Shown here piece by piece: positions 3,311 through 54,396 of a DNA stretch of 64,000 bases. Under the pieces are notes generated by a model. It did no database searches. It had not been told where the DNA came from and saw only the letters and a program-made list of their open reading frames with translations. Source of the stretch: Candidatus Poriferisocius sp. (GTDB lineage Bacteria > Actinomycetota > Acidimicrobiia > Acidimicrobiales > Bin134); NCBI RefSeq assembly GCF_965202595.1, contig NZ_OZ241836.1, positions 215,095 through 279,094 on the forward strand, written 5' to 3'. Each line of letters begins with the position of its first letter. Positions within the stretch are counted from its first letter, which is position 1. The translations under genes and the position numbers were made by a program.

Positions 3311-3372
3311 GGTTTTGAGTTTGCCACCTTTGTTGGGGGTTGTGGCGGGTTTTTTGTGGGGGGTACTTGCGC

Positions 3373-3387
3373 GGGGGGGGGGGGGGG
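3373..3387. repeat. Homopolymeric G15 tract in the divergent promoter region upstream of the Fn3 giant gene
   Basis: Counted directly: G at positions 3373-3387, 80 nt upstream of the GTG/ATG at 3467. Confidence 0.9.
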
Positions 3388-3466
3388 TGTGTGAGAGTGT
3401 AGTGGAGTAGTTATTCGTTTTGGCTGGGGCTTTGGGGTTCTGGTCGTTTCAGGAAAGGGTGGCTTC

Positions 3467-6400
3467 GTGATGGTTGACCGGTTTGGTTTCGGTTGGGTGG
3501 GGTTGCGCCGGTTTGGTGGGCCTCTGGTTGTTTTGGTGTTGTTGGGGTCGGTGTTGGTTTCGGTGGGGGGTGTGGTTGCGCAGGGGGGTGTGCCGGCGTA
3601 TCCGTTGTCGCCGAAGGTGGAGGTGTTGGGTGGTGGTCAGGTTCGGTTGTCGTGGGAATCACCGGGGTCGGGTGAGGTGCGTTATGAGTACATGTTTTCG
3701 CAATCGACTGATGCTGGGACCACGTGGGTTCCGCCGGTGGACAGGGTGGTGGATACTTCTACGGGGTTAGCGCCTGTTTCGGGGGATCGTAGTGGGGTTG
3801 TGTGGCGGCCGGTGCCCGGGGGTGGGGGTGCTCGGTCGGTGGTGGTGTCGGGTTTGACGGTTGGTAGCAGGTACCGGTTCTGGGTGCGGGCGGTGAACGC
3901 TGCGGGAGCGGGCAAAATTCGGGGTATTGGTCGGTCGGATGGGTATTTGATGTCTGGTGTTGCGCCGGTGCCGGCGGCTTTGCGGGCGGTTCCTGGGGAT
4001 TCCCAGGTGGAGTTGAAGTGGACCAAGGCTCGGGGTGAGGTGGTGGGGTCGGGGTTTGCTACTATTTTGCGGTACGAGTACGCGATCAAACAAGGTGATG
4101 GGGGTTGGTCGGCGTGGTCGCCGATACCGGATTTGATTTCGAACAATGCGGTTGTGGCGGCTGAGGATCGCGAGTCGTTCACGGTCACGGGTTTGACCAA
4201 CGATGTTGGGTATTCGTTCCGGGTGCGGGCGGTCAACAAGCATGGCAACGGTGCCACCGGTATGGTGGGGCCGGTGGTGGTAGCAGGCGTGCCGGGGGCT
4301 CCTCGTGGGTTTGTGGTGATGCCGGGGGATAAGTCGGCGTTGTTGTCGTGGCAGCCGCCGGGGGTGGTTGGCTCGCCGATAACGGGTTGGGAAGTCCGGT
4401 GGACGAGTTCGGGTTACAGCGATCTGGGTAGCGCGGCGTGGCAGAGGGTTCCTGGTGGGGCCGGGGCCAGGTCTTATTATGTGAGTGGTTTGGATAATAC
4501 CAAGAGTCATTTGTTTGAGGTGCGGGCTGTCAACGCGTTGGGTGGGGGTTTGGGGGCGCGTTCCGGGTTCGTGTATTTGGGTGCGCTGCTGGAGGTGCCT
4601 GGTGGGTTTAAGACGAGGAAGGTGATGGAGTCGTCGGTGACATTGGGGTGGGACCAGCCGGCTAATTTAGTTAGTGGTGGTGGTAGTGAGGGGTTTCGGC
4701 GTTATGAGTATTCGGTGTGGGCTGGTGATGGTGATTGGGGTGGTTGGGTGGCGATACCGGGTGACTACGCGACTAGTTCGTTCACGGTTCCGGGTTTGAT
4801 GGCGGGCACCGGGTACCGGTTCAGGTTGCGGGCGGTGAATAGTGTGGGTGCGGGTGCGGTGGCTGAGACGGGTGTTGTTTATCCGGGTACGGTGCCGCCG
4901 GCGCCGGCGGTGGTTGCGGAGGTGGTGTCGGATTACACTATAGGGTTGCATCAGGTGGTTTTGTCGTGGACGGGTTCCGATGGTGGTTCCCCGGTGACGA
5001 AGTGGCAGTTGAAACATGCGACAACGGTGGACGGGTTGACCAGCGCGTCGTGGCATGATTTGTGTGATAACACAGCGGGGGCGGATCCGACCTGTGGGGG
5101 GTTGTTGACGGTGACGCTGCCCAGGAATCGGACTTTTGATTACAAGAATGCAACTAGCTGTTTGGTTGTGTTGTGTGTGGGGAGTTTGAAGGTGGGGGAT
5201 CATTATTTCGTGTTGCGGGCGCAGAATGCCAGGGGTGTGGGTTTGGAGTCTGGGGTTGTGAGGGTGAATATCGCCAAGGGTGTTCCCTCTATGGCGACGA
5301 CGGCGGTTTTGAGGGGTTATACTGATGATCCCCGCACCAATGGTCGCCCTCACATGGGGGTAAGCTCTCCTGTGAGTTATCTTCATGGTGGTAAGCGTTT
5401 GCGGTTTGAGTATTCGTGGAAGGTCGGTGATGGGCCGTGGAGTGGATGGGCTACTCAACAGGGTAGCTTGAGTAGAGCTACCGAGACTTTCGATGAGGTC
5501 ACTTTCCGGGTTGGGGAGACTTACACGTTCAGGACCCGGACGGTGTCTGATTTGGGGGCGGGTTATGCGGTCGAGTCGGAACCGTTTGTGTTCGGGGCTC
5601 CGCCTTTGCCCGGTGCTGATGGTTGGACGGGTTTTGCTTTGACGCGTCCGGAAGTGTTGGCGGTGCCGGGTAATGGTCAGGTGAAGTTGAACATCGTCCG
5701 ACCCAAAGCGACGCTTGTAAGACGTGCTGATGGGTTTGTGGTTGGTTATGAGAATGCTTTCACCGATACCGATGGTACTTATGATGACACGGTTTGGGAG
5801 TATTCGTATCGTCCCGCCGGGGGTGAGTGGTCGCCGTGGGCGGTGTCCAATACGGGTCAAAGGTTCGCTGATCGGGCTGGGAACAGCGCCGATGTGGCTG
5901 GCGATGGGATCACGGTGTCGGGTTTGCGCAATGGGGTGGCTTATGAGTTCCGGGTTAGGGCGCTGAACCGGCACGGTACCGGTTGGTTGGTGGGTCCGGT
6001 GTTGTATTCCAACGGTGCCGGTTTGTACAACAAAGCCGGCGATGTTTACCCCGACAGGGTAGCCATACCAGGTGTGGCACCCCCCGCCCCCGCAGGGTTG
6101 ACGGCTGTTGGTGGTGATGGTCAGGTAACGCTGTCGTGGATGTCGGTGGGTTCGGGGGGTCCGCCGATCATCCGCTGGGAGTACATAAAACAGGAACGAA
6201 CCGCGGGTAGTACAACGTTCGGTGATTGGGATGGAAATTGGACTCCGGTTCCGGGTTCGGGGCCGTCTACGACTTCGGCGGTGATAAAGGGTTTGACCAA
6301 CGGCTCGACGTACCGGTTCCGCCTGCGGGCGGTGAACGCTTTGATGGCCTTCGACAGCGAGGGTGTTTTGGAGACTGTGACTACCTCTGTCAACAAGGGT

Positions 6401-7660
6401 GCGCAGGCGCAGTCGTTGCCGGTTACCCCTGGCAATACGCCCACTGCGCCTCGCCAGGTGCGGGTGGTGCCCGGTGATGGTGAGGTGAGGGTCTCTTTGT
6501 TGGCCCCGCAGAGTGGTTCTACGGTTTTGGGTTACGAGGTTCGGACGCGTCGCAGCGGTAGCAGCAGTTTTGATGCGTGGCAATCGCTGGGAGCTCGCAT
6601 CACCCCACCGGCCCGCCATTTGGCCGAATCAGTTGGTGTGCCGGTGCGGGGTTTGGTCAATGGGTTGGCCTATGACTTTGAGGTGCGGGCGGTGAACCAG
6701 TTCGGTGCCGGCCCCGCCGCAGGCGTGGTCGGCCCGGTAACACCAGTGGGCGCACCGACAGGCGGTTCGCTGCGAGCGGTTGCTGGTGATGGGCAGGTTT
6801 CGTTGTCGTGGGCTGCGGTGAACACGGGGGGTTCTGTGGTTACGGGTTGGCAGTACCGCATGAAAACCGATGGTGGGGGTTACGGTTCATGGACCGATGT
6901 CACCGGTGGAGCAGCAGCGCGCAGCCTGGTGGTGGATGGTTTGGGCAATGGGCGGGCCTATGCGTTTCAGGTGCGAGCCATAACCACCGATGTTCAGGTG
7001 ATTGGGGCGGCGTTCGAGTCCACCCCGGTCACCCCCTCAGCGGTGCCCCCCGCCCCCACAGTGAAAGCCACCGCTGCCAACACGATGCTTACTTTGAACT
7101 GGACCGCTGTTGATGGTGGGGCGGTGGGGGAGTCGTCGTGGGCTGCTGCGGTTACCGGGTGGCAGTACCGGATGAAAACCGGCACCGCTGGTTACGGGGC
7201 TTGGGTTGATGTGCCTGCCGCTACCACCACCCGCGACATCGATGGTCTCACCAACGGTGTTGCCTACACCTTTGAGGTCCGAGCGCTGAACAGGATTGGT
7301 GCTGGTACTGCCGTTACCGCCACGGCGACACCGGCGACGGTGCCTGATGCGCCGGCCGTTACCACCACGGCTGGTGACAAGACAGTGACAGTGAACTGGA
7401 CACCGGGTGGTGATGGGGGTTCTGTGGTGACGGGTTGGCAGTTGCGCACCGGCGATGCCGAGTGGGCCAACTACCCTGCGGGCACCACTTCGGTGCCGGT
7501 TCAGAATCTGACCAATGGCACTACCTACACCTTTCAGGTCAGAGCCCAAAACGATATGGGCAACGGTGCTGTTGGGGTTGCTACTGCAACCCCTGCTACC
7601 ACTCCCGCTGCACCCACGGTTACTACCATGCCTGGAGACGGCACCGTGACTTTGTCGTGA
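3467..7660 (+). CDS. Secreted multi-fibronectin-type-III repeat surface protein, N-terminal 1,397 codons, ending at an in-frame TGA
   Basis: N-terminal signal/anchor (LVVLVLLGSVLVSVGGVVAQG), then more than 12 repeats of roughly 90-100 aa with the pattern VxLxW...GGSPITGW.Y......W..V......Y.V.GL.NG..Y.F.VRA.N..G.G. Confidence 0.85.
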   Translation: MMVDRFGFGWVGLRRFGGPLVVLVLLGSVLVSVGGVVAQGGVPAYPLSPKVEVLGGGQVRLSWESPGSGEVRYEYMFSQSTDAGTTWVPPVDRVVDTSTGLAPVSGDRSGVVWRPVPGGGGARSVVVSGLTVGSRYRFWVRAVNAAGAGKIRGIGRSDGYLMSGVAPVPAALRAVPGDSQVELKWTKARGEVVGSGFATILRYEYAIKQGDGGWSAWSPIPDLISNNAVVAAEDRESFTVTGLTNDVGYSFRVRAVNKHGNGATGMVGPVVVAGVPGAPRGFVVMPGDKSALLSWQPPGVVGSPITGWEVRWTSSGYSDLGSAAWQRVPGGAGARSYYVSGLDNTKSHLFEVRAVNALGGGLGARSGFVYLGALLEVPGGFKTRKVMESSVTLGWDQPANLVSGGGSEGFRRYEYSVWAGDGDWGGWVAIPGDYATSSFTVPGLMAGTGYRFRLRAVNSVGAGAVAETGVVYPGTVPPAPAVVAEVVSDYTIGLHQVVLSWTGSDGGSPVTKWQLKHATTVDGLTSASWHDLCDNTAGADPTCGGLLTVTLPRNRTFDYKNATSCLVVLCVGSLKVGDHYFVLRAQNARGVGLESGVVRVNIAKGVPSMATTAVLRGYTDDPRTNGRPHMGVSSPVSYLHGGKRLRFEYSWKVGDGPWSGWATQQGSLSRATETFDEVTFRVGETYTFRTRTVSDLGAGYAVESEPFVFGAPPLPGADGWTGFALTRPEVLAVPGNGQVKLNIVRPKATLVRRADGFVVGYENAFTDTDGTYDDTVWEYSYRPAGGEWSPWAVSNTGQRFADRAGNSADVAGDGITVSGLRNGVAYEFRVRALNRHGTGWLVGPVLYSNGAGLYNKAGDVYPDRVAIPGVAPPAPAGLTAVGGDGQVTLSWMSVGSGGPPIIRWEYIKQERTAGSTTFGDWDGNWTPVPGSGPSTTSAVIKGLTNGSTYRFRLRAVNALMAFDSEGVLETVTTSVNKGAQAQSLPVTPGNTPTAPRQVRVVPGDGEVRVSLLAPQSGSTVLGYEVRTRRSGSSSFDAWQSLGARITPPARHLAESVGVPVRGLVNGLAYDFEVRAVNQFGAGPAAGVVGPVTPVGAPTGGSLRAVAGDGQVSLSWAAVNTGGSVVTGWQYRMKTDGGGYGSWTDVTGGAAARSLVVDGLGNGRAYAFQVRAITTDVQVIGAAFESTPVTPSAVPPAPTVKATAANTMLTLNWTAVDGGAVGESSWAAAVTGWQYRMKTGTAGYGAWVDVPAATTTRDIDGLTNGVAYTFEVRALNRIGAGTAVTATATPATVPDAPAVTTTAGDKTVTVNWTPGGDGGSVVTGWQLRTGDAEWANYPAGTTSVPVQNLTNGTTYTFQVRAQNDMGNGAVGVATATPATTPAAPTVTTMPGDGTVTLS

Positions 7661-7684
7661 ACACCGGGCACCGATGGGGGTTCG

Positions 7685-8776
7685 GTGGTGACGGGTTGGC
7701 ATTTGCGGGTTGATGATGGTGAGTGGGTGGATTTGACCGGGATGGGTTTGGGCGCTGATGCCACCTCGGTGCCGGTACCCAACCTGGTCAATGGCACCAG
7801 CTACACCTTCCACATACGAGCCCAAAACGCAATGGGTGCCGGTGCTGTGGCCTCGGTGTCGGCGACACCTGCTGCGGTACCGGCTGCTCCCAGCGTCACA
7901 GCGACGGCCACCGATGGGACCGTCACCGTCACTTGGATGGCGGGTGCCGATGGTGGTTCTGTGGTGACGGGTTGGCAGTGGCGCACACGGGTCGGGAGCG
8001 CCGGTTTCGGTGAGTGGGCCGATGTCGGTGCGGCCACGATGAGCACGGTCATAACCGGTACTAATACTGGTACCGGTCCGGTGACCTATACCTTTGAGGT
8101 GCGGGCCGTCAACGCAGTCGGTGCCGGTCCCGCGGGCACATCGTCCACCGTCACCTCCGGCGACGATGCTCCTGGTGGTGATACCCCCAGCGATGAGGTT
8201 TATTACTCCGGTCCGGTCACCGGTCCGAGTTTTTGTGCGGAGTTCTCTTTGGGTGGGGCCCGCTTGTTCGCTTTGGACAGCGATGGTGACGGGGTGGCCG
8301 ACACCTGCTCTTTGCCGTATACCCGGCGTGAGGCGATAGCCCGGAACAACGCGGTGATTACCCTGGCCAACCGGTATCCCGATTTGTACCGCCGACTCGT
8401 CAACGCCGAATGCGCCAACCAACCCGGTAGCGGGGCTTGTGGGGGTGATGAGTTGGCTGTGCCGGGGTTCCCGCCGCCCAATGACGGGGGCGCCTACTAC
8501 TCGGGGACCATCACCGGCCCCTCCTACTGCGCCAACCGCTCTTTGGGTGGGCCCACCACCTACCCGTTGGACAGCGATGGTGACGGTGTGGCCGATGTCT
8601 GCTCGTTGCCCTACACGCGGCGTGAGGCCATAGCCCGCCAAAAAGCCGGCGACACCCTGGCTGCCACCTACCGCGACGAGTACAGGGCCGCCCTTGCTGA
8701 GGAGTGCCGCCGCCTGGGTCGCGGCAACTATGGCGACAGCGTTGCCGATCTGAACAACGACATCTGCAACAACTAG
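7685..8776 (+). CDS. Continuation of the Fn3 repeat protein (same frame as 3467..7660) with a duplicated Cys/Asp-rich C-terminal module
   Basis: 7685-3467 is divisible by 3. The sequence right after the TGA (TPGTDGGSVVTGWHLR) continues the Fn3 repeat consensus. The C-terminus has 2 copies of DSDGDGVAD.CSLPYTRREAIAR. Confidence 0.8.
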   Translation: MVTGWHLRVDDGEWVDLTGMGLGADATSVPVPNLVNGTSYTFHIRAQNAMGAGAVASVSATPAAVPAAPSVTATATDGTVTVTWMAGADGGSVVTGWQWRTRVGSAGFGEWADVGAATMSTVITGTNTGTGPVTYTFEVRAVNAVGAGPAGTSSTVTSGDDAPGGDTPSDEVYYSGPVTGPSFCAEFSLGGARLFALDSDGDGVADTCSLPYTRREAIARNNAVITLANRYPDLYRRLVNAECANQPGSGACGGDELAVPGFPPPNDGGAYYSGTITGPSYCANRSLGGPTTYPLDSDGDGVADVCSLPYTRREAIARQKAGDTLAATYRDEYRAALAEECRRLGRGNYGDSVADLNNDICNN

Positions 8777-39840: not shown

Positions 39841-41063
39841 ACGTCGCCCCGGCGCTTTTGGGTCCGACCGTGTTCGGCCTCGACCCGCTCTACATCGGGG
39901 GGGTGGGCCTGGCCGAGGTTCTCATCACCCTGCTCAAGGTGGGGGTGGCTTTTGCTCTTCTGCTGATGGCGGTCATGCTGATGATCTGGTTCGAACGCAA
40001 GTTGATCGGCGACATGCAGAACCGTATCGGGCCTGCGCTGGCCGGGCCGTTCGGCATCTTCCAGACCCTGGCCGACGGGATCAAGCTGTTCTTCAAGGAG
40101 GACCTGATCCCCGACCGCTCCGACCGGTTGGTGTTCAAGCTGGCCCCCTACCTGTCGCTGGTGCCTGCCTTTTTGGTGTTCGCCGTGATCCCCGTGGGCG
40201 GCGATTTCAGCGGTGGCAACGGGCGGGTCAGCCTGTTCGGTCACGAGACCTTCCTCCAGGTGTCCGACCCGCCGGTGGGCATCCTGCTGGTGCTGGCCAT
40301 GTCGTCGGTGGCCGTTTACGGGGTGATGCTGGCCGGGTGGTCGTCGGGCTCCAAGTATCCCCTGCTGGCGTCGGTGCGGGCCTCGGCCCAGATGGTTTCC
40401 TACGAGGCCGCACTGGGTTTGTCGCTGGCCGCGGTGCTGCTGAAATCGGGCAGCCTGTCCACCCACCTGATCGTTTCCGAGCAGTCGGTGTGGAACTGGA
40501 ACCTGTGGGTTACATGGGTGGTGCCCATGGTCGTCTTCTTGATCGCTGCCACCGCCGAACTGAACCGGCCCCCCTTCGACCTGGTGGAGGCCGAGCAGGA
40601 GCTGGTCGGCGGCTTCCACACCGAGTACAGCTCCATCCGGTTCGCCCTGTTCTACCTGGCCGAGTTCATGAACACCATCACGATGTCGGCCATCGTGGTG
40701 ACCCTGTTCCTGGGCGGGCCCAACGGTCCCGACTTCACCTCGGTGGGCTGGCTGTCGGGGTTGCTGTGGTTCTTGGGCAAGCTGCTGATCCTGCTGTTCA
40801 CCTTTGTGTGGTTGCGGGCCACCCTGCCCCGCTTCCGCTACGACCAGCTCATGGACCTGGGTTGGAAATTGCTCATCCCCCTGTCGCTGGGGTGGCTGCT
40901 GGTGCTGGCCTCCTACGACGTGGCCGGGGATCGGGGCTGGAACCGCTTCGCCACCGTGCTGGCGGTGATGGCGGTGATGGCCGCTCTGGCCGGGTTGTTG
41001 AGCCTGGCCCTGCGAAATGCCCGCCGCCACCGGGAGTTGGATCCCCAAGGTGGTTTTGCCTGA
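39837..41063 (+). CDS. nuoH: NADH-quinone oxidoreductase subunit H
   Basis: WFERKLIGDMQNRIGP and EAEQELVGGFHTEYS motifs. Confidence 0.95.
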   Translation: MNVAPALLGPTVFGLDPLYIGGVGLAEVLITLLKVGVAFALLLMAVMLMIWFERKLIGDMQNRIGPALAGPFGIFQTLADGIKLFFKEDLIPDRSDRLVFKLAPYLSLVPAFLVFAVIPVGGDFSGGNGRVSLFGHETFLQVSDPPVGILLVLAMSSVAVYGVMLAGWSSGSKYPLLASVRASAQMVSYEAALGLSLAAVLLKSGSLSTHLIVSEQSVWNWNLWVTWVVPMVVFLIAATAELNRPPFDLVEAEQELVGGFHTEYSSIRFALFYLAEFMNTITMSAIVVTLFLGGPNGPDFTSVGWLSGLLWFLGKLLILLFTFVWLRATLPRFRYDQLMDLGWKLLIPLSLGWLLVLASYDVAGDRGWNRFATVLAVMAVMAALAGLLSLALRNARRHRELDPQGGFA

Positions 41064-47881: not shown

Positions 47882-50371
47882 TTGACAACTTCAACACTGT
47901 TATAAAATTTGAAAAATACACTGTTCAAGTAAGTGACTTCTTCTGAAATACTGTCACAATTTTTTCAAATTACTACTGTAGTTGAGTTTACCAATATAGG
48001 ACTCCATGAAATCCCAATCCGGTAATCCGGGTTTTATTACAGGCAAAGGTATCCGTGATCGTTCCAAGCGGGCTTTCACAAGGGCATATCCGTAGTTGTA
48101 GGTGCCCTTGTGAGCGAAATCCATCACAGTCACTAGAAAGATGCCAATACCTGCGCTCATTCTCTCGTGCCTGATAATGTTTACCTTGTTACCCTTCAAG
48201 AACTCATCTGGCTGATAGAAGGCCACTACTCCCTCTGCTCCTATCGTTATACAGTTCCCCTCATAGGATGTGTCATGCCTACCGAAGCCGTCCACCCCGT
48301 TGTTAGACGCGGTACGCGTGATGTACGGCAGGCTGCCTTCAATAAGCTCTCTCTTATCGGTGTAAGGTCCAAGGGTAACAGCGAACGTTTCTCCGATATT
48401 GAAATACTCCCATTCCCTGTCAGTGAGCCGAAGATCAGATTCAGATATGGGTTGTGAATGTACGGCGTTAAGCTTACCCTGAGAAAACATAGCTCCTGTG
48501 AGTAATCTCAAAGAATACTGGAAGTCTTCCTGTGTCAACTGCCGGTAATCTCGCGTAATACAGGCCTCTGCGCACCACTCATCAGCTGGGTTAAGCTCTC
48601 TCATTTCACTGAAATATGGGACTTCATCTCTGTTGAGGAAATGCCTTACCCACTGATCTCGAATGGAAGGCCACTTGTTGTCCGGATCTACTCGACCCTT
48701 GTGCATCTCCACCACATAGCCGTCATCTTTGGCAAGTGCCAGCCAGACTTTTTTACCTTTTGGATGTGGGCGATGGGCTATAATCACCATGACGCAGGTA
48801 ACAGCGCTAGCTTTGGAGTTAAAAAACAGTTGATTTGGCATGGACAACACTGCTTCCAGCGTGTGTTTTTTCATCAACTTTGACTTGAAGTTGATGATCT
48901 TGTCACTTGTGGATAGAGCTGACTGCATGGGAATGATGGCAATACAGATGCCTCCATCACCTAAAATATCAAGGTTATTGAGTACAAACTCCCACTCTTC
49001 TTTGTCGTGTCTTTTGTTCGATTTATATGGAGGGTTGAGCATTCCTACAGTGGGCCGTTTAATTTTCATTCTTGCAATAATATCGGTATCGAAACAACTT
49101 GCTTGCTCTATATTGGATTTGCCATCTTGATGTATAAACATGTTGGAGACAGCCAGTGGAAAAATGTCAGCCTGTAGTTCAACTCCGAAAAGCTGGCTGT
49201 TCTTTATACGGGTTTCTAGTTCTTCCGATCCCTTAGCATCTGTAATCATACGTTTCATAGCGCTGATCAGGAATCCCCCAGTACCTGCACAATTATCGTA
49301 GACTATGGAGGACTTATTCACCTGGGCTAGATCTGCAAATAACTCGGTTATATGCGGTGGTGTAAGAACTATACCCAGGCCCTTATCCTTGTTGGCATAT
49401 CTCAGGAACTCAACGTACAGTTCGCCTAGGACATCCCGGTATTCATGGTTTTTGATGAAGGAGTTTATTTCGCTATCTATCTGCTGTACTAACTCTCTCA
49501 GTTCCCCATCCTTTTGAATCAAAGCTGTCTCGTGTTCAATGAATGAGAACTTCTGTTCCAGCAATCTAAGTTTTTCCTCATCCAAGTCGGCCTTCAACTC
49601 TGCTAGGACTCGTTTCTGAATATCCTTTGCCAATTCTACCGAGTCGTTTTCCGCGCCATATGATCTTTTGAAGGACGGATTCTCCAAAGCTATTAGTATA
49701 GCACTTATCAAGAGTGCTCTGTTGCTTTCAGCGACTTTGTTTCTATGTAAACGCTCATTCAATATACGAAGAAAACTCTTCAAAGAATCGTAGTCTTGCC
49801 TGTACTTATCAGGATTATTGTAGTAGCCCCGAATATAATCTGACGGAGAAAGCAAAGTTTCATCAAATATTGGAGTCGGGCACGCAACTCCTTTGAGGTG
49901 TAGAAAATGGGAAATTCTGGCATCTGTGTGAGTTTCTCCACTGATACCTATACAAATCACGTCGAATTCTTTTGATAGGTAAGACGAGTAATGCATGGCA
50001 CCATCAACCGCAAATTCGATGGGACGGTCCCGGTCAGGACTCTCATGTTTGTTCCGGTCAGCCTTGCACTCGATCACGATTAAAAGATCGGGTTCGTCTT
50101 TCAAAGTAACCAGGAACTCGGGATAACCTCGTCCTGCCCCTCCTTTCGATGCCGATGCCAGCAGTTTTTCGATTCGGCGGTGCTTGGATTTTTGCTCTTC
50201 CACTTCTACCTGGTCGGCGTACTGCCTGAAGTGGGATCGAACTATTTCCTCTGTGTTTCTCTCGTTAGGCACTGTTCGTTACTGGCTTCCTTGAGAGCGG
50301 TCGACCGGAGCACTCCATTTCACTTTCTCCATGAGCACATAGTACAGGTGGTGCGTGACAATTTGTGTGAT
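47882..50371. other. AT-rich islet 1 (about 2.5 kb), filling the space between the stop codons of convergent nuoN and the PQQ dehydrogenase gene
   Basis: An abrupt compositional switch is visible in the raw sequence at both edges. Hand counts on a few 60-nt lines give roughly 30-50% G+C, against roughly 65-70% in the flanks. No integrase or transposase is present. Confidence 0.8.
47954..50272 (-). CDS. Single-chain Type IIG-like restriction-modification enzyme (PD-ExK nuclease + gamma N6-adenine methyltransferase + HsdS-like target recognition domain)
   Basis: 772 aa. The N-terminus has PDLLIVIECK (D...ExK). The centre has VLTPPHITELFADL, DNCAGTGGFL (motif I) and MLNPPY (motif IV). The C-terminal ~270 aa show the HsdS TRD pattern ending in IPLPV. 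Confidence 0.7.
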   Translation of the reverse strand: MPNERNTEEIVRSHFRQYADQVEVEEQKSKHRRIEKLLASASKGGAGRGYPEFLVTLKDEPDLLIVIECKADRNKHESPDRDRPIEFAVDGAMHYSSYLSKEFDVICIGISGETHTDARISHFLHLKGVACPTPIFDETLLSPSDYIRGYYNNPDKYRQDYDSLKSFLRILNERLHRNKVAESNRALLISAILIALENPSFKRSYGAENDSVELAKDIQKRVLAELKADLDEEKLRLLEQKFSFIEHETALIQKDGELRELVQQIDSEINSFIKNHEYRDVLGELYVEFLRYANKDKGLGIVLTPPHITELFADLAQVNKSSIVYDNCAGTGGFLISAMKRMITDAKGSEELETRIKNSQLFGVELQADIFPLAVSNMFIHQDGKSNIEQASCFDTDIIARMKIKRPTVGMLNPPYKSNKRHDKEEWEFVLNNLDILGDGGICIAIIPMQSALSTSDKIINFKSKLMKKHTLEAVLSMPNQLFFNSKASAVTCVMVIIAHRPHPKGKKVWLALAKDDGYVVEMHKGRVDPDNKWPSIRDQWVRHFLNRDEVPYFSEMRELNPADEWCAEACITRDYRQLTQEDFQYSLRLLTGAMFSQGKLNAVHSQPISESDLRLTDREWEYFNIGETFAVTLGPYTDKRELIEGSLPYITRTASNNGVDGFGRHDTSYEGNCITIGAEGVVAFYQPDEFLKGNKVNIIRHERMSAGIGIFLVTVMDFAHKGTYNYGYALVKARLERSRIPLPVIKPGLPDWDFMESYIGKLNYSSNLKKL

Positions 50372-51805: not shown

Positions 51806-52641
51806 GTTCGCAGGGGTCTCATCAACCCCTCCTGTACCACCGAGGCCACCAGATCACCGCTGCGGGTCCAGGCCGTACCCCAGGCCAAACCTCGGGCGTT
51901 GGATGCCGAATTCGACACTTGATCCAGAAAGATCCAGTCGTTCATGCTCAGCGGCCGGTGGAACCACATGGCGTGGTCCAAGCTGGCCATCTGCATGTCC
52001 ACATCGTTGCCCTGCACCGGGTGGGGGCGGGTGGCGGTGTCCAGAACCGTCAGGTCGCTGGCGTAGGTGAACATGCAGGTGTGCAGTACCGGGTCGTCGG
52101 GTAGGGTGCCGGTCGCCCGCAACCACACCTGAAGCCGGGGTTCCCGGCTCTCGGATCGTTTCGCCGGCGACCCGGTCGCATAGCGCAGCTCGATCGGGCG
52201 TTTCATCCGGCCCTGGTCATCCACCGGGAAACCGGGCCATACGAAAGGTTCCAGCTCCTCGGGATCGGGTATCCCGGTGGGGAAGTGGGTTTGGTGTTCG
52301 AAGCCGTCCTCCCGGCTCTGGAAGGAGGCCGACATGGCGAAGATGGGTTTGCCGTGCTGGATGGTGGTCACCCTGCGGGTGGTGAACGAGCGGCCGTCCC
52401 GCACCCGCTCCACCAGGTACACCAGGGGAGCCATAACATCGCCGGGACGGATGAAGTAGGCGTGAAGGCTGTGGACCGCCCGGCTCTCCACGGTGCGAGC
52501 TGCGGCCACCAGGGCCTGGCCGGCTACTTGACCGCCGAACACCCGCTGGCGGTCCTCTGTGGGGCTGACCCCCCGGAAGATGTCCTTCTCGATGGGTTCC
52601 AGATCCAGTAGCTCGACCAGATCATCCACCTCCGACTGCAT
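51802..52641 (-). CDS. tesB: Acyl-CoA thioesterase II
   Basis: LLDLEPIEKDIFRG....RQRVFGGQVAGQAL...HSLHAYFIRPGD parallels the E. coli TesB N-terminus. Double hot-dog length (279 aa). Confidence 0.9.
   Translation of the reverse strand: MQSEVDDLVELLDLEPIEKDIFRGVSPTEDRQRVFGGQVAGQALVAAARTVESRAVHSLHAYFIRPGDVMAPLVYLVERVRDGRSFTTRRVTTIQHGKPIFAMSASFQSREDGFEHQTHFPTGIPDPEELEPFVWPGFPVDDQGRMKRPIELRYATGSPAKRSESREPRLQVWLRATGTLPDDPVLHTCMFTYASDLTVLDTATRPHPVQGNDVDMQMASLDHAMWFHRPLSMNDWIFLDQVSNSASNARGLAWGTAWTRSGDLVASVVQEGLMRPLRT
52472..52551. repeat. Left copy of an 80-bp direct repeat (inside intact tesB)
   Basis: 76/80 identical to 54530-54609 by manual alignment. Confidence 0.85.
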
Positions 52642-52835
52642 GACCGGCTCATTCTACCGCCTTGAACCCGTGGCTGATGCATCTATCTGAAAATGTCCAC
52701 GTCTAACGGCCAAATAATCGGCTACCCACAAGTTCATGTCTGTAACAAACTCGTCAAACCACTCTGGTGGCATCTCATATGCTTTCTGTTTCCCTCTGGA
52801 AGTGTCCGTTTTCTACTCTAATGCATCAACATTTT

Positions 52836-53555
52836 TTAGAAGGGTAGGCGGTTGTTATAAGAAGCTTTGATTAACCGATTCTCAGCAGCAGTGAAATAGG
52901 CTTGGTCCAATTCAGCACCTAGGAAGCGTCGTTTCAGGTTTAGCGCTGCTACACCAGTTGATCCGACACCCATAAATGGATCATAAACAAGATCACCTTC
53001 TAGGGTGGCCAAATTTATTATATGTTCCAACACACGTACTGGTTTCTGCGTTGGGTGTTTAGGGTCTTTCAATCGTTCCCTGCCCATGCAGATAGGAGTT
53101 TCAATAAAGTTGTGCATATCAGACTGTTTCCCGAAGTTCCAGGTATGCCCTTTGTTCCACACACAAATAATTAGTTCACATGAGTTGAGAAATCCTGCTT
53201 TTCTGATCTTGGGTGCAGGGTTAGTTTTGTGCCAGACCATAAACTGAAACGTGTCAAACTCTGGGTCGAAAGCGTCATGCCACTGTCCCAACAAGTTATA
53301 ACTAGTGAAGGCAAAAATGTTTCCAGTTGGTTTCAAAATGCGTGTGAATTCATGTAACCACTTGGCTGGTATGAACTCTTCTCTATCCCATTCTGCTAGA
53401 TCATTGTTGAGATCAGAACGCCAGTTAAATTTCATGTTGCCAGTCGAATATGGGCTGAGATTGTATGGAGGGTCTGTGAGGATAAGGTCAACGGTGTGGT
53501 CAGGTATTGTTTTGATGTGCTCAGCGCTGTCAGCCCACACTGTTTCATATTCCAT
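52836..53555 (-). CDS. Beta-class N4/N6 DNA methyltransferase
   Basis: DLILTDPPYN (motif IV) lies near the N-terminus and DPFMGVGSTGVAA (motif I) near the C-terminus. That order and the 239-aa size fit the N6_N4_Mtase family. Confidence 0.85.
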   Translation of the reverse strand: MEYETVWADSAEHIKTIPDHTVDLILTDPPYNLSPYSTGNMKFNWRSDLNNDLAEWDREEFIPAKWLHEFTRILKPTGNIFAFTSYNLLGQWHDAFDPEFDTFQFMVWHKTNPAPKIRKAGFLNSCELIICVWNKGHTWNFGKQSDMHNFIETPICMGRERLKDPKHPTQKPVRVLEHIINLATLEGDLVYDPFMGVGSTGVAALNLKRRFLGAELDQAYFTAAENRLIKASYNNRLPF

Positions 53556-53556
53556 A

Positions 53557-54396
53557 TTATTCTCCCAAGTAGGTGTTTCGTATAGAGTCTAAAGCTAGTC
53601 GGATATAGTGTGCACTGTCCCTGTATGCTTTCAATACCCATTCATAACCGTTGTCTGATTGGCACACAAAGTTCCAAAAGTCTTGACCTATCAATAGTTC
53701 TTCGTCTGCAAAAAATTGTCGTACTCTTTCTTGTGCCCACGGTTGGCCTTCTCCAAATCTGTTATAGGCAGTAGCGAAGAAAGTACGGACTGTGGCATCC
53801 TCGGAAAGCTGATTGGTCAGTATCGTATATTGTTCCATAATAGCTTCTTTTTCAGAGCGTGCCTTCTTGTTGTCCAGGTCACCGCCTATCTTTAGTTCTA
53901 TCAGGTAGTGTTTGTTAGCTGCTCTGTCAATCAGATAATAGTCAGACCCGTGCTGTTTTATGATAGGTGAACCTTTTACTGATTTGTGCAGCTTTCTGTA
54001 GTCAGATAGAGATGGTGTTGCCCGTCGGCTTTTATAACTTTCTAATATCGCAGCGATGGTCGATATTTGATCTTCACTTATAAAGCCAGATATATTATTG
54101 TGAACCTCAAACGAGAGTTCTGCAATTTGGATTGCTAGTTTTTCTAACATGTTGCCTAGCGAACTGTCTAGTGATCGAACTAAAGCAGTATAGTATCGTA
54201 TTTCCGGCCCTAAAGCTTCAATAAAAATATTGTGTATTTTCATGTTTATCACGCCATTAGGGTTGTTTACTTCACTTTCGTGGCGCAGCTTAAACCCTTC
54301 CGCGTATGCCATCACACAGCCGCGTACAAGCGTTTCAACTGCCAGTTGCTTGGGTGTGTTGTCGTGCGTCATGCGGCCCCTGTTTCCAATTTTCAT
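53557..54396 (-). CDS. Probable Type II restriction endonuclease, partner of the adjacent methyltransferase
   Basis: 279-aa AT-rich ORF ending 1 nt before the methyltransferase start. It has a candidate PD-(D/E)xK-like core (DYYLIDRAANKHYLIELKIGGDLDNKK). It resembles the TdeIII-type family from memory only; this is unverified. Confidence 0.5.
   Translation of the reverse strand: MKIGNRGRMTHDNTPKQLAVETLVRGCVMAYAEGFKLRHESEVNNPNGVINMKIHNIFIEALGPEIRYYTALVRSLDSSLGNMLEKLAIQIAELSFEVHNNISGFISEDQISTIAAILESYKSRRATPSLSDYRKLHKSVKGSPIIKQHGSDYYLIDRAANKHYLIELKIGGDLDNKKARSEKEAIMEQYTILTNQLSEDATVRTFFATAYNRFGEGQPWAQERVRQFFADEELLIGQDFWNFVCQSDNGYEWVLKAYRDSAHYIRLALDSIRNTYLGE

Follow-up and report, generated by a model that had tools for sequence, protein, structure and literature searches.

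The window, the whole 64,000-nucleotide stretch of Candidatus Poriferisocius sp. DNA considered here, carries one 1,770-codon frame (3467..8776) that is seen on read-through translation to be interrupted by a single internal stop. Two ORFs, 3467..7660 (1397 aa, GTG start) and 7685..8776 (363 aa), lie in the identical frame on either side of it. The stop, a TGA at 7658-7660 that takes the place of residue 1398 between ...PGDGTVTLS and TPGTDGGSVVTGW..., lies outside any homopolymer, and the gene contains no other stop and no frameshift. Past the TGA the frame stays open for 371 codons and ends where the family normally ends, and over its last 499 residues the encoded protein shares 80-90% identity with 23 close paralogues; together these two properties identify a disrupted gene well beyond chance. 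(The earlier note had joined the two ORFs into one Fn3 gene of about 1,770 codons, and so they prove to be.) Gene callers have annotated the part downstream of the stop as separate products, P0126 (362 aa) and P0127 (344 aa). P0122 and P0124, proteins of 54 aa that cluster with the truncated one, were dropped from consideration; they are located on unrelated phage-integrase contigs.

Table 1. The disrupted Fn3 gene and its upstream region: features and their window coordinates
Feature	Position	Strand	Remarks
TTGCGC, -35-like hexamer, directly 5' of G tract	3367..3372	+	putative promoter element
G15 homopolymer in presumed promoter spacer	3373..3387	+	G10-G18 equivalents upstream of most paralogues
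GGAAAGGG, Shine-Dalgarno-like, 8 nt before GTG/ATG start	3452..3459	+	putative
Signal-peptide-like N-terminus VMVDRFGFGWVGLRRFGGPLVVLVLLGSVLVSVGGVVAQ	3467..3580	+	assigned from the sequence, without a predictor
GGTTGGGTGGGGTTG, degenerate remnant where most paralogues have a coding G10-G18 tract	3492..3506	+	
Upstream ORF, from the leader through Fn3 modules 1-12 (all complete) into module 13 (18 residues); TGA end	3467..7660	+	
Upstream ORF as recorded: P0123, 1396 aa, C-terminus ...GDGTVTLS	3467..7660	+	
Fn3 module 13 of 14, residues 1380-1471, holding the stop	7604..7879	+	profile parse
In-frame TGA at conserved B-strand Trp codon, one G-to-A transition from TGG	7658..7660	+	37 TGG vs 1 TGA; W 27/27
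Same-frame remainder: rest of module 13, module 14, C-terminal modules	7661..8776	+	TAA 8774-8776, the family's normal stop
Twin Cys-rich C-terminal modules, motif DSDGDGVADxCSLPYTRREAIAR	8165..8773	+	invariant Cys, Asp and Arg columns

Pfam fn3 (PF00041) matches the protein in 11 stretches (E = 2.2e-92; 303.8 bits against a cut-off of 25), and parsing with a family-specific profile resolves 14 Fn3 modules, with the stop at position 19 of module 13. Tryptophan, which had been claimed for the corresponding site of every other repeat, is absent there from modules 7 (VKLNIV) and 9 (VRVSLL). The paralogues share a hydrophobic leader ending in GAQ or VAQ. At the other end of the protein, the twin Cys-rich modules are its most conserved part across the genus and are missing from the truncated product. 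(Against Pfam and NCBIfam they yield Excalibur alone, below cut-off at 17.9 versus 22 bits, and their AlphaFold2 model is poor, with a pLDDT of 61.5.)

The genome (3.1 Mb, ~63% G+C) holds 28 near-identical paralogues of the 14-module protein, a giant that is probably secreted or displayed at the surface, the window copy included. The other 27, amounting to ~145 kb of near-repeats, have assembled with zero broken frames; all are open, and all have W at the alignment column of the stop. At the DNA level TGG occupies 37 of 37 other homologous sites, in keeping with the single TGG-to-TGA change that had been proposed. Among 72 matched family stretches in five genomes of the genus the window copy provides the sole internal stop, and in none of them does a homologue end naturally at the TGA point. 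The nearest other genome in the species collection has a DNA identity of only 67%, so that base-for-base comparison with an orthologue is impossible; an exact-pattern scan of JGI metagenomes around the stop site returned 0 matches.

The state of the rest of the gene suggests a very recent lesion and not an old pseudogene. Private substitutions at family-invariant columns number 4 in 479 before the stop and 1 in 207 after it, as in intact copies, and a broken copy that has suffered no further damage implies that the change is very recent. The choice of codon requires no special explanation, since 98 of the 141 transition nonsense changes possible in this gene (~70%) fall on Trp codons. As to the undamaged downstream part, it fits recency and would fit equally well selection maintained by readthrough, or repair by gene conversion.

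The window gene is probably an ordinary, genuine and very recent nonsense allele, null or severely truncated, and as such an incipient pseudogene. A G-to-A transition would have converted the core-tryptophan TGG of Fn3 module 13 to TGA, where release factor 2 would end translation. The product would be 1,397 residues long, with a signal peptide and 12 Fn3 modules still intact, while modules 13-14 and the twin Cys-rich modules of the C-terminus would be missing; tRNA-Trp, as an ordinary near-cognate reader of UGA, might give rise to full-length protein, with the native residue restored, at trace level at most. The truncated product is probably non-functional, and the missing C-terminal modules are probably required for function; since the product keeps the leader and 12 modules, some function could remain. 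Recent nonsense mutation was one of the options offered in the earlier note, and it is this option that gains support: TGA is the main stop codon of the genome, RF2 is present, the residue is Trp in all 27 paralogues, and the gene is otherwise free of decay.

That note had also allowed for an on/off variant of a surface protein. The family does appear to have on/off devices, and to judge by sequence these would be poly-G tracts instead of the TGA codon of module 13, which, not being reversible at high rate, does not qualify as a contingency switch. When the family was parsed, 18 copies proved to have a coding tract and 19 a promoter tract. The coding tracts (G10-G18) lie near the 5' end of the reading frame, where either shifted frame runs into a stop, and their lengths in this assembly would put 13 of the 18 copies translationally off. 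The promoter tracts sit between -35-like and -10-like elements; the motif TACTTGC(GC) precedes the G tract in most paralogues, and in a sister species the arrangement is TTGACC-G15-19-CGATAAT. A consensus promoter scan missed the G-tract promoter, and assignment of the -35 and -10 elements accordingly stays with conservation among the paralogues. Both of the two promoter tracts that could be compared between two assemblies of the same strain differ by one G, a difference for which homopolymer error may be responsible, the second assembly having 3-4x coverage.

Slipped-strand contingency families are known from Neisseria: opa varies through coding repeats, and opc and porA through a poly-C/G tract in the promoter spacer. 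The family described here resembles them in having both coding G10-G18 tracts and promoter-spacer tracts. It differs in that its host is a sponge mutualist and not a pathogen, in that the window copy is devoid of the coding tract, and in that switching is here predicted from the tracts, together with the one-G differences between two assemblies (3-4x for the second).

Lacking a coding G tract, the window copy would be fixed in frame at its 5' end. This opens the way to a different and unlikely reading, in which selection would have favoured the nonsense codon as a means of turning off a paralogue deprived of its reversible coding poly-G switch. With the frame fixed, point mutation would be the only way left to shut such a copy down; UGA at a Trp codon would be the gentlest such lesion, in that basal misreading by tRNA-Trp would supply traces of the native protein and a single transition would revert it. 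One of the four copies that are fixed in frame is broken, as against none of the 24 others, and these numbers are too small for inference.

It is quite unlikely that the 1,397-residue protein is a functional variant in its own right, for example a released form that dispenses with the C-terminal modules. In favour of it, the protein retains its start, its leader and 12 undamaged Fn3 modules, and the C-terminal modules could serve as an attachment or calcium-binding end. There is also precedent in Listeria monocytogenes, where internalin is secreted unanchored when inlA carries a premature stop. The likeness to inlA lies in a single nonsense substitution that removes the C-terminal end of a long, leader-bearing, repeat-built surface protein and leaves a secretable N-terminal fragment. 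The present case differs from inlA in that the gene belongs to a set of 28 paralogues, which probably buffers its loss, and in that the lost part has no identified cell-wall anchor motif. Against a functional variant, the lost part is better conserved across the genus than any other, the stop interrupts a module and leaves an 18-residue stub that would be unable to fold, and across the five genomes truncation, or an end close to this stop, is seen in no other family member. Enrichment of fn3 domains in sponge-associated symbionts has been published (PMC11706023), and the window protein, secreted and multi-Fn3 and encoded by one of the Acidimicrobiia that live with sponges, is of a kind with the Fn3-rich eukaryotic-like proteins reported there. 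That work counts domains; phase variation (0 occurrences), the 28-member family and the broken copy are absent from it.

A consensus, assembly or polishing error, with TGG and an intact gene in the true genome, is very unlikely. Just one base is at stake, and mapping of reads can fail in a repeat family of 28 members. However, A is found at the homologous site in 0 paralogues, and cross-mapped reads could therefore only have restored G. Against error there are also the location of the site outside homopolymers and the unbroken frames of the other 27 copies. A second contig, too, has both fragments (P0123 and P0127) on record, and an independent low-coverage assembly (ENA ERZ26693861; 3-4x) of a strain that is 99.99% identical differs from the genome almost only in G runs; these two circumstances make consensus error unlikely. 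The sequencing error that had been contemplated is thus disfavoured, and the base at 7660 is probably real at the level of reads.

UGA is the leakiest bacterial stop codon, and its near-cognate reader is tRNA-Trp. Programmed or enhanced readthrough, yielding a useful full-length protein at reduced level, would put back the very residue that is native to the site; nothing beyond the stop is damaged, and a hairpin (-24.7 kcal/mol, z = -1.79) begins 3 nt past the TGA. This reading, which had also been put forward for the stop, is nevertheless highly improbable. Paralogues with TGG fold about equally at the same place (-11 to -24 kcal/mol), the hairpin-forming sequence being dictated by the conserved motif TPGxDGGSxVTGW, and an Rfam scan around the stop found no match, just sub-threshold miRNA-like noise. 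The TGA-A context is unremarkable, occurring at 18% of genuine stops, which matches expectation from base composition. RF2 is encoded (prfB, 458 bits against a cut-off of 370), and the one tRNA-Trp, with anticodon CCA, shows the canonical anticodon stem of 5 bp. PMC13092985 covers special cases of UGA reading by tRNA-Trp and links a 4-bp anticodon stem of this tRNA to UGA decoding; the ordinary stem of the present tRNA is not of that form. A genetic code in which UGA means Trp was considered as well and rejected: TGA terminates 1,379 of 2,368 coding-like long ORFs (58%) and is the main stop codon of the genome, RF2 is present, and the tRNA-Trp has the CCA anticodon with a 5-bp stem. The window gene does share with code 4 and with the 4-bp-stem systems (PMC13092985) an in-frame UGA where homologues have Trp; in contrast to them there is here one such codon only, in a genome with TGA as main stop, RF2 and a 5-bp stem.

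Selenocysteine, for which the genome has tRNA-Sec (its only tRNA with a UCA anticodon), selB (269.9 bits against a cut-off of 242) and selD, and for which the TGA followed by a stem-loop offers a likeness to genuine FdhA and SelD selenoprotein genes, has next to no chance of being encoded here, because that machinery has its classical clients elsewhere in the genome, an fdhA-like gene (CNRT*HAPS) and selD (HGAG*AGK) with TGA at known active-site positions, whereas the Fn3 site is a buried structural position that is Trp, and not Cys or Sec, in all homologues (27 of 27 paralogues), and the stem-loop, with similar folding in TGG paralogues, appears not to be specific to the window copy. With readthrough and selenocysteine both disfavoured, the TGA is best regarded as a nonsense codon and not as a recoding signal.

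For annotation, the two ORFs should be treated as one disrupted gene. Taken by itself the window allele is of little importance, and its value lies in what the family shows. One internal stop in roughly 70 giant Fn3 genes of five genomes implies that selection keeps every copy intact. Copies that are kept intact though most of them appear to be silenced by poly-G tracts are what a contingency repertoire, and not redundant junk, would be expected to show, and the pattern lends support to the view that a sponge mutualist, like pathogens, varies its surface.

The interval 3467..8776 translates as 1,770 codons with one internal stop, TGA 7658-7660 (residue 1398, context ...PGDGTVTLS-stop-TPGTDGGSVVTGW...), and the two same-frame ORFs described in the earlier note are found as claimed. 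They should be annotated as a single disrupted gene. The protein matches Pfam fn3 (E = 2.2e-92), and a profile made from its own repeats delimits 14 Fn3 modules. Module 13 covers residues 1380-1471, and the TGA falls at its position 19, where the B strand has a tryptophan. (The earlier note had Trp here in every other repeat: the position is indeed that of the B-strand Trp, but modules 7 and 9 have Ile/Leu.) The protein is Gly- and Val-rich and its codons are G/T-rich; on the coding strand at 4001-6000, G exceeds C very strongly (skew 0.375), and G+C there is 0.587, below the surroundings. The broken gene has housekeeping genes as neighbours (dUTPase, aspartate dehydrogenase, ammonium transporter). 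Elsewhere in the window G+C falls to 0.44 (48001-50000) and 0.51 (52001-54000) from a background of ~0.65, and these stretches may be foreign or mobile DNA.

Features of the broken gene, the selenocysteine system and the second assembly (window coordinates unless C1, the contig holding the window, is named)
Feature	Position	Strand	Remarks
Upstream ORF	3467..7660	+	1397 aa
Downstream ORF	7685..8776	+	363 aa, frame same as 3467..7660
Promoter-spacer G15 run of the window copy	3373-3387		
tRNA-Sec	C1:2779893		
selB	C1:2795718		
Genuine Sec codons, fdhA-like gene (CNRT-U-HAPS) and selD (HGAG-U-AGK)	C1:887689 and C1:2497230		
ENA ERZ26693861 contigs ctg137053_4x_l, ctg133750_3x_l			25.3 and 20.4 kb; 99.99% to source genome

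Public homologues come under the name Candidatus Poriferisocius sp., one of the Acidimicrobiia that are associated with sponges, and fn3 enrichment in such Acidimicrobiia is already published (PMC11706023). The source genome comprises 3.1 Mb in two contigs, with ~63% G+C, and the window occupies C1:215095-279094. The 501 nt surrounding the stop recur ~26 times in it at 74-88% identity, and delimitation by tblastn and frame extension yields 28 paralogues, of which the other 27 are open over 1,747-2,198 codons, stop to stop. A change of TGG to TGA at a conserved Trp is borne out, with W at the stop column of the protein alignment in 27/27 other paralogues and TGG at 37/37 other homologous DNA sites (a count that includes the neighbouring repeat). 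The read-through protein matches 72 stretches in five genomes of the genus (28 in the source genome, 32 in the sister species G008 and 4 in each of three others). Since the window copy alone among these is interrupted by an internal stop, homologues do not end naturally at this position, as the earlier note had allowed they might, and broken copies are rare in the family. TAA ends 18 of the 28 family genes, against 14% of coding-like ORFs genome-wide, which probably reflects common descent or 3'-end gene conversion.

The TGA is probably a true, recent nonsense mutation, one of the readings offered in the earlier note: it is the single lesion in the 5.3 kb of the gene (there are no further stops or frameshifts), private substitutions lie within the range of intact copies, and TGA is a working stop. 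At the columns that do not vary among the 23 other close paralogues, private substitutions of the window copy number 4/479 ahead of the stop and 1/207 beyond it, inside the ranges of intact copies (1-11 and 0-5, respectively). Decay has not yet begun downstream of the stop; the mutation is very recent, or gene conversion may be homogenising the copy. A hit at a Trp codon is unsurprising, because the 49 Trp codons of the gene account for 98 of its 141 possible nonsense changes by transition (70%). In G+C-rich bacteria, moreover, the most frequent spontaneous change is the G:C-to-A:T transition.

An assembly error is a rival reading; against it, and in favour of a real base, stand four indirect points. 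A is absent from the stop site in every other paralogue, so that reads mis-mapped from another copy could bring in nothing but G; the site lies outside any homopolymer; the assembled sister genes, ~145 kb in all, include no broken frame; and the recorded products of the upstream and downstream pieces, P0123 (1396 aa, ending ...GDGTVTLS) and P0127 (344 aa), each occur on two contigs. The second contig probably belongs to ENA ERZ26693861, another assembly of this strain, because another protein (P0009) is likewise on two contigs, the second being from that assembly.

Recoding of the TGA as selenocysteine is unlikely. The source genome has tRNA-Sec, selB and selD, and a hairpin begins 3 nt past the TGA (-24.7 kcal/mol, z = -1.79). 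On the other hand, the Sec machinery has classical clients, with the TGA codons of the fdhA-like gene and selD at known active-site positions, whereas the Fn3 TGA replaces a structural Trp where a selenoprotein gene would have Cys or Sec homologues. The hairpin is built from codons of the conserved TPGxDGGSxVTGW motif, and the same stretch in TGG-bearing paralogues folds to -11 to -24 kcal/mol. Rfam gives no match above noise around the stop. TGA functions as a stop in this genome: it ends 1,379 of 2,368 coding-like long ORFs (TAG 657, TAA 332), with A as fourth base after 18% of genuine TGA stops, the base-composition expectation. Decoding of UGA as Trp is rejected on both tRNA and RF2, the single tRNA-Trp (CCA anticodon) having an ordinary 5-bp anticodon stem, unlike the 4-bp form linked to UGA decoding in PMC13092985, and prfB being present (458 bits vs a cut-off of 370). 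Among the window's tRNAs, ARAGORN reports a 95-nt tRNA-Arg(ACG) at 40881-40975, ~20 nt over the usual length, which may contain an insertion or have wrong limits.

What is left in the upstream product is the hydrophobic leader, 12 whole modules and the first 18 residues of module 13. Missing from it are module 14 and both of the Cys-rich twin modules (residues 1567-1769), which bear DSDGDGVADxCSLPYTRREAIAR and are the best-conserved part across the genus (matched in 17/18 genomes; Cys, Asp and Arg columns invariant). Pfam finds only a sub-threshold Excalibur calcium-binding match to them (17.9 vs 22 bits), and their AlphaFold2 model is poor (pLDDT 61.5). The downstream piece has a possible start at GTG 7685; because it has no leader, it would, if translated from there, remain cytoplasmic. 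By its effect and by its features, the TGA is an ordinary nonsense allele in a gene for a surface protein, and its closest known counterparts are the Listeria inlA alleles with premature stops.

The 5' ends of all 28 family genes were inspected for poly-G. In most, the stretch that encodes the leader contains a G10-G18 tract, after which the two wrong frames run into TAG and GTAGTCGTTTAG, respectively; this coding tract appears to be a classical slipped-strand translational switch. Among parsed tracts of the source assembly, 5/18 are in frame and 13/18 out of frame. The window copy and three others have no coding tract, the former retaining a remnant, GGTTGGGTGGGGTTG, at 3492-3506. Because its tract is lost, the window copy is fixed in frame, and the TGA alone now closes it. 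(One of the four copies without the tract is broken and none of the remaining 24, numbers too few for cause and effect.)

A further G10-G18 tract is found in most members, preceded by a CTTGC(G) motif and followed by TATAGT (window 3367-3410), with the ATG 7 nt past TATAGT, which suggests a candidate promoter-spacer switch and a leaderless transcript. Of ten 5' ends from G008 (~31 copies), nine have the sequence TTGACC/TTGAC-G15-19-CGAT(A/G)AT(A), where the tract separates a near-consensus -35/-10 pair, and the tenth has G15 in a different context; coding tracts are absent from all ten (G008:C1, L034-L043). In the few-copy species G010 and G001, the 5' ends inspected (L044, L045) are free of tracts. 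Over 45.7 kb at 99.99% identity, the two assemblies of the strain differ at both promoter tracts compared (G10/G11 and G12/G13; c2333672 and c417288 of C1 vs L046:9971 and L047:9862), at one SNP and in the length of two short G runs. The one-G tract differences hint at phase variation; the second assembly is only 3-4x, and they may be errors instead.

The source genome has 94 G/C runs of at least 9 nt (mode 13-16), 38 of them at family 5' ends. Genome-wide, run lengths peak at 13-16 and show no decay. The 56 runs outside the family are of 9-20 nt (for example at C1:135738, 743498, 1438922, 2171696/2171877 and 3035510), and that at C1:135738 shares the TACTTGC-Gn promoter motif. For sponge symbionts, the literature search found no account of phase variation by poly-G tracts. 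As a set of putative switches, the Fn3 family is comparable to contingency families, among them Neisseria opa and the opc/porA promoters. Control of the same kind may extend to further genes and, if the promoter-spacer switch is true, the Fn3 family would be under two tiers of slippage control.
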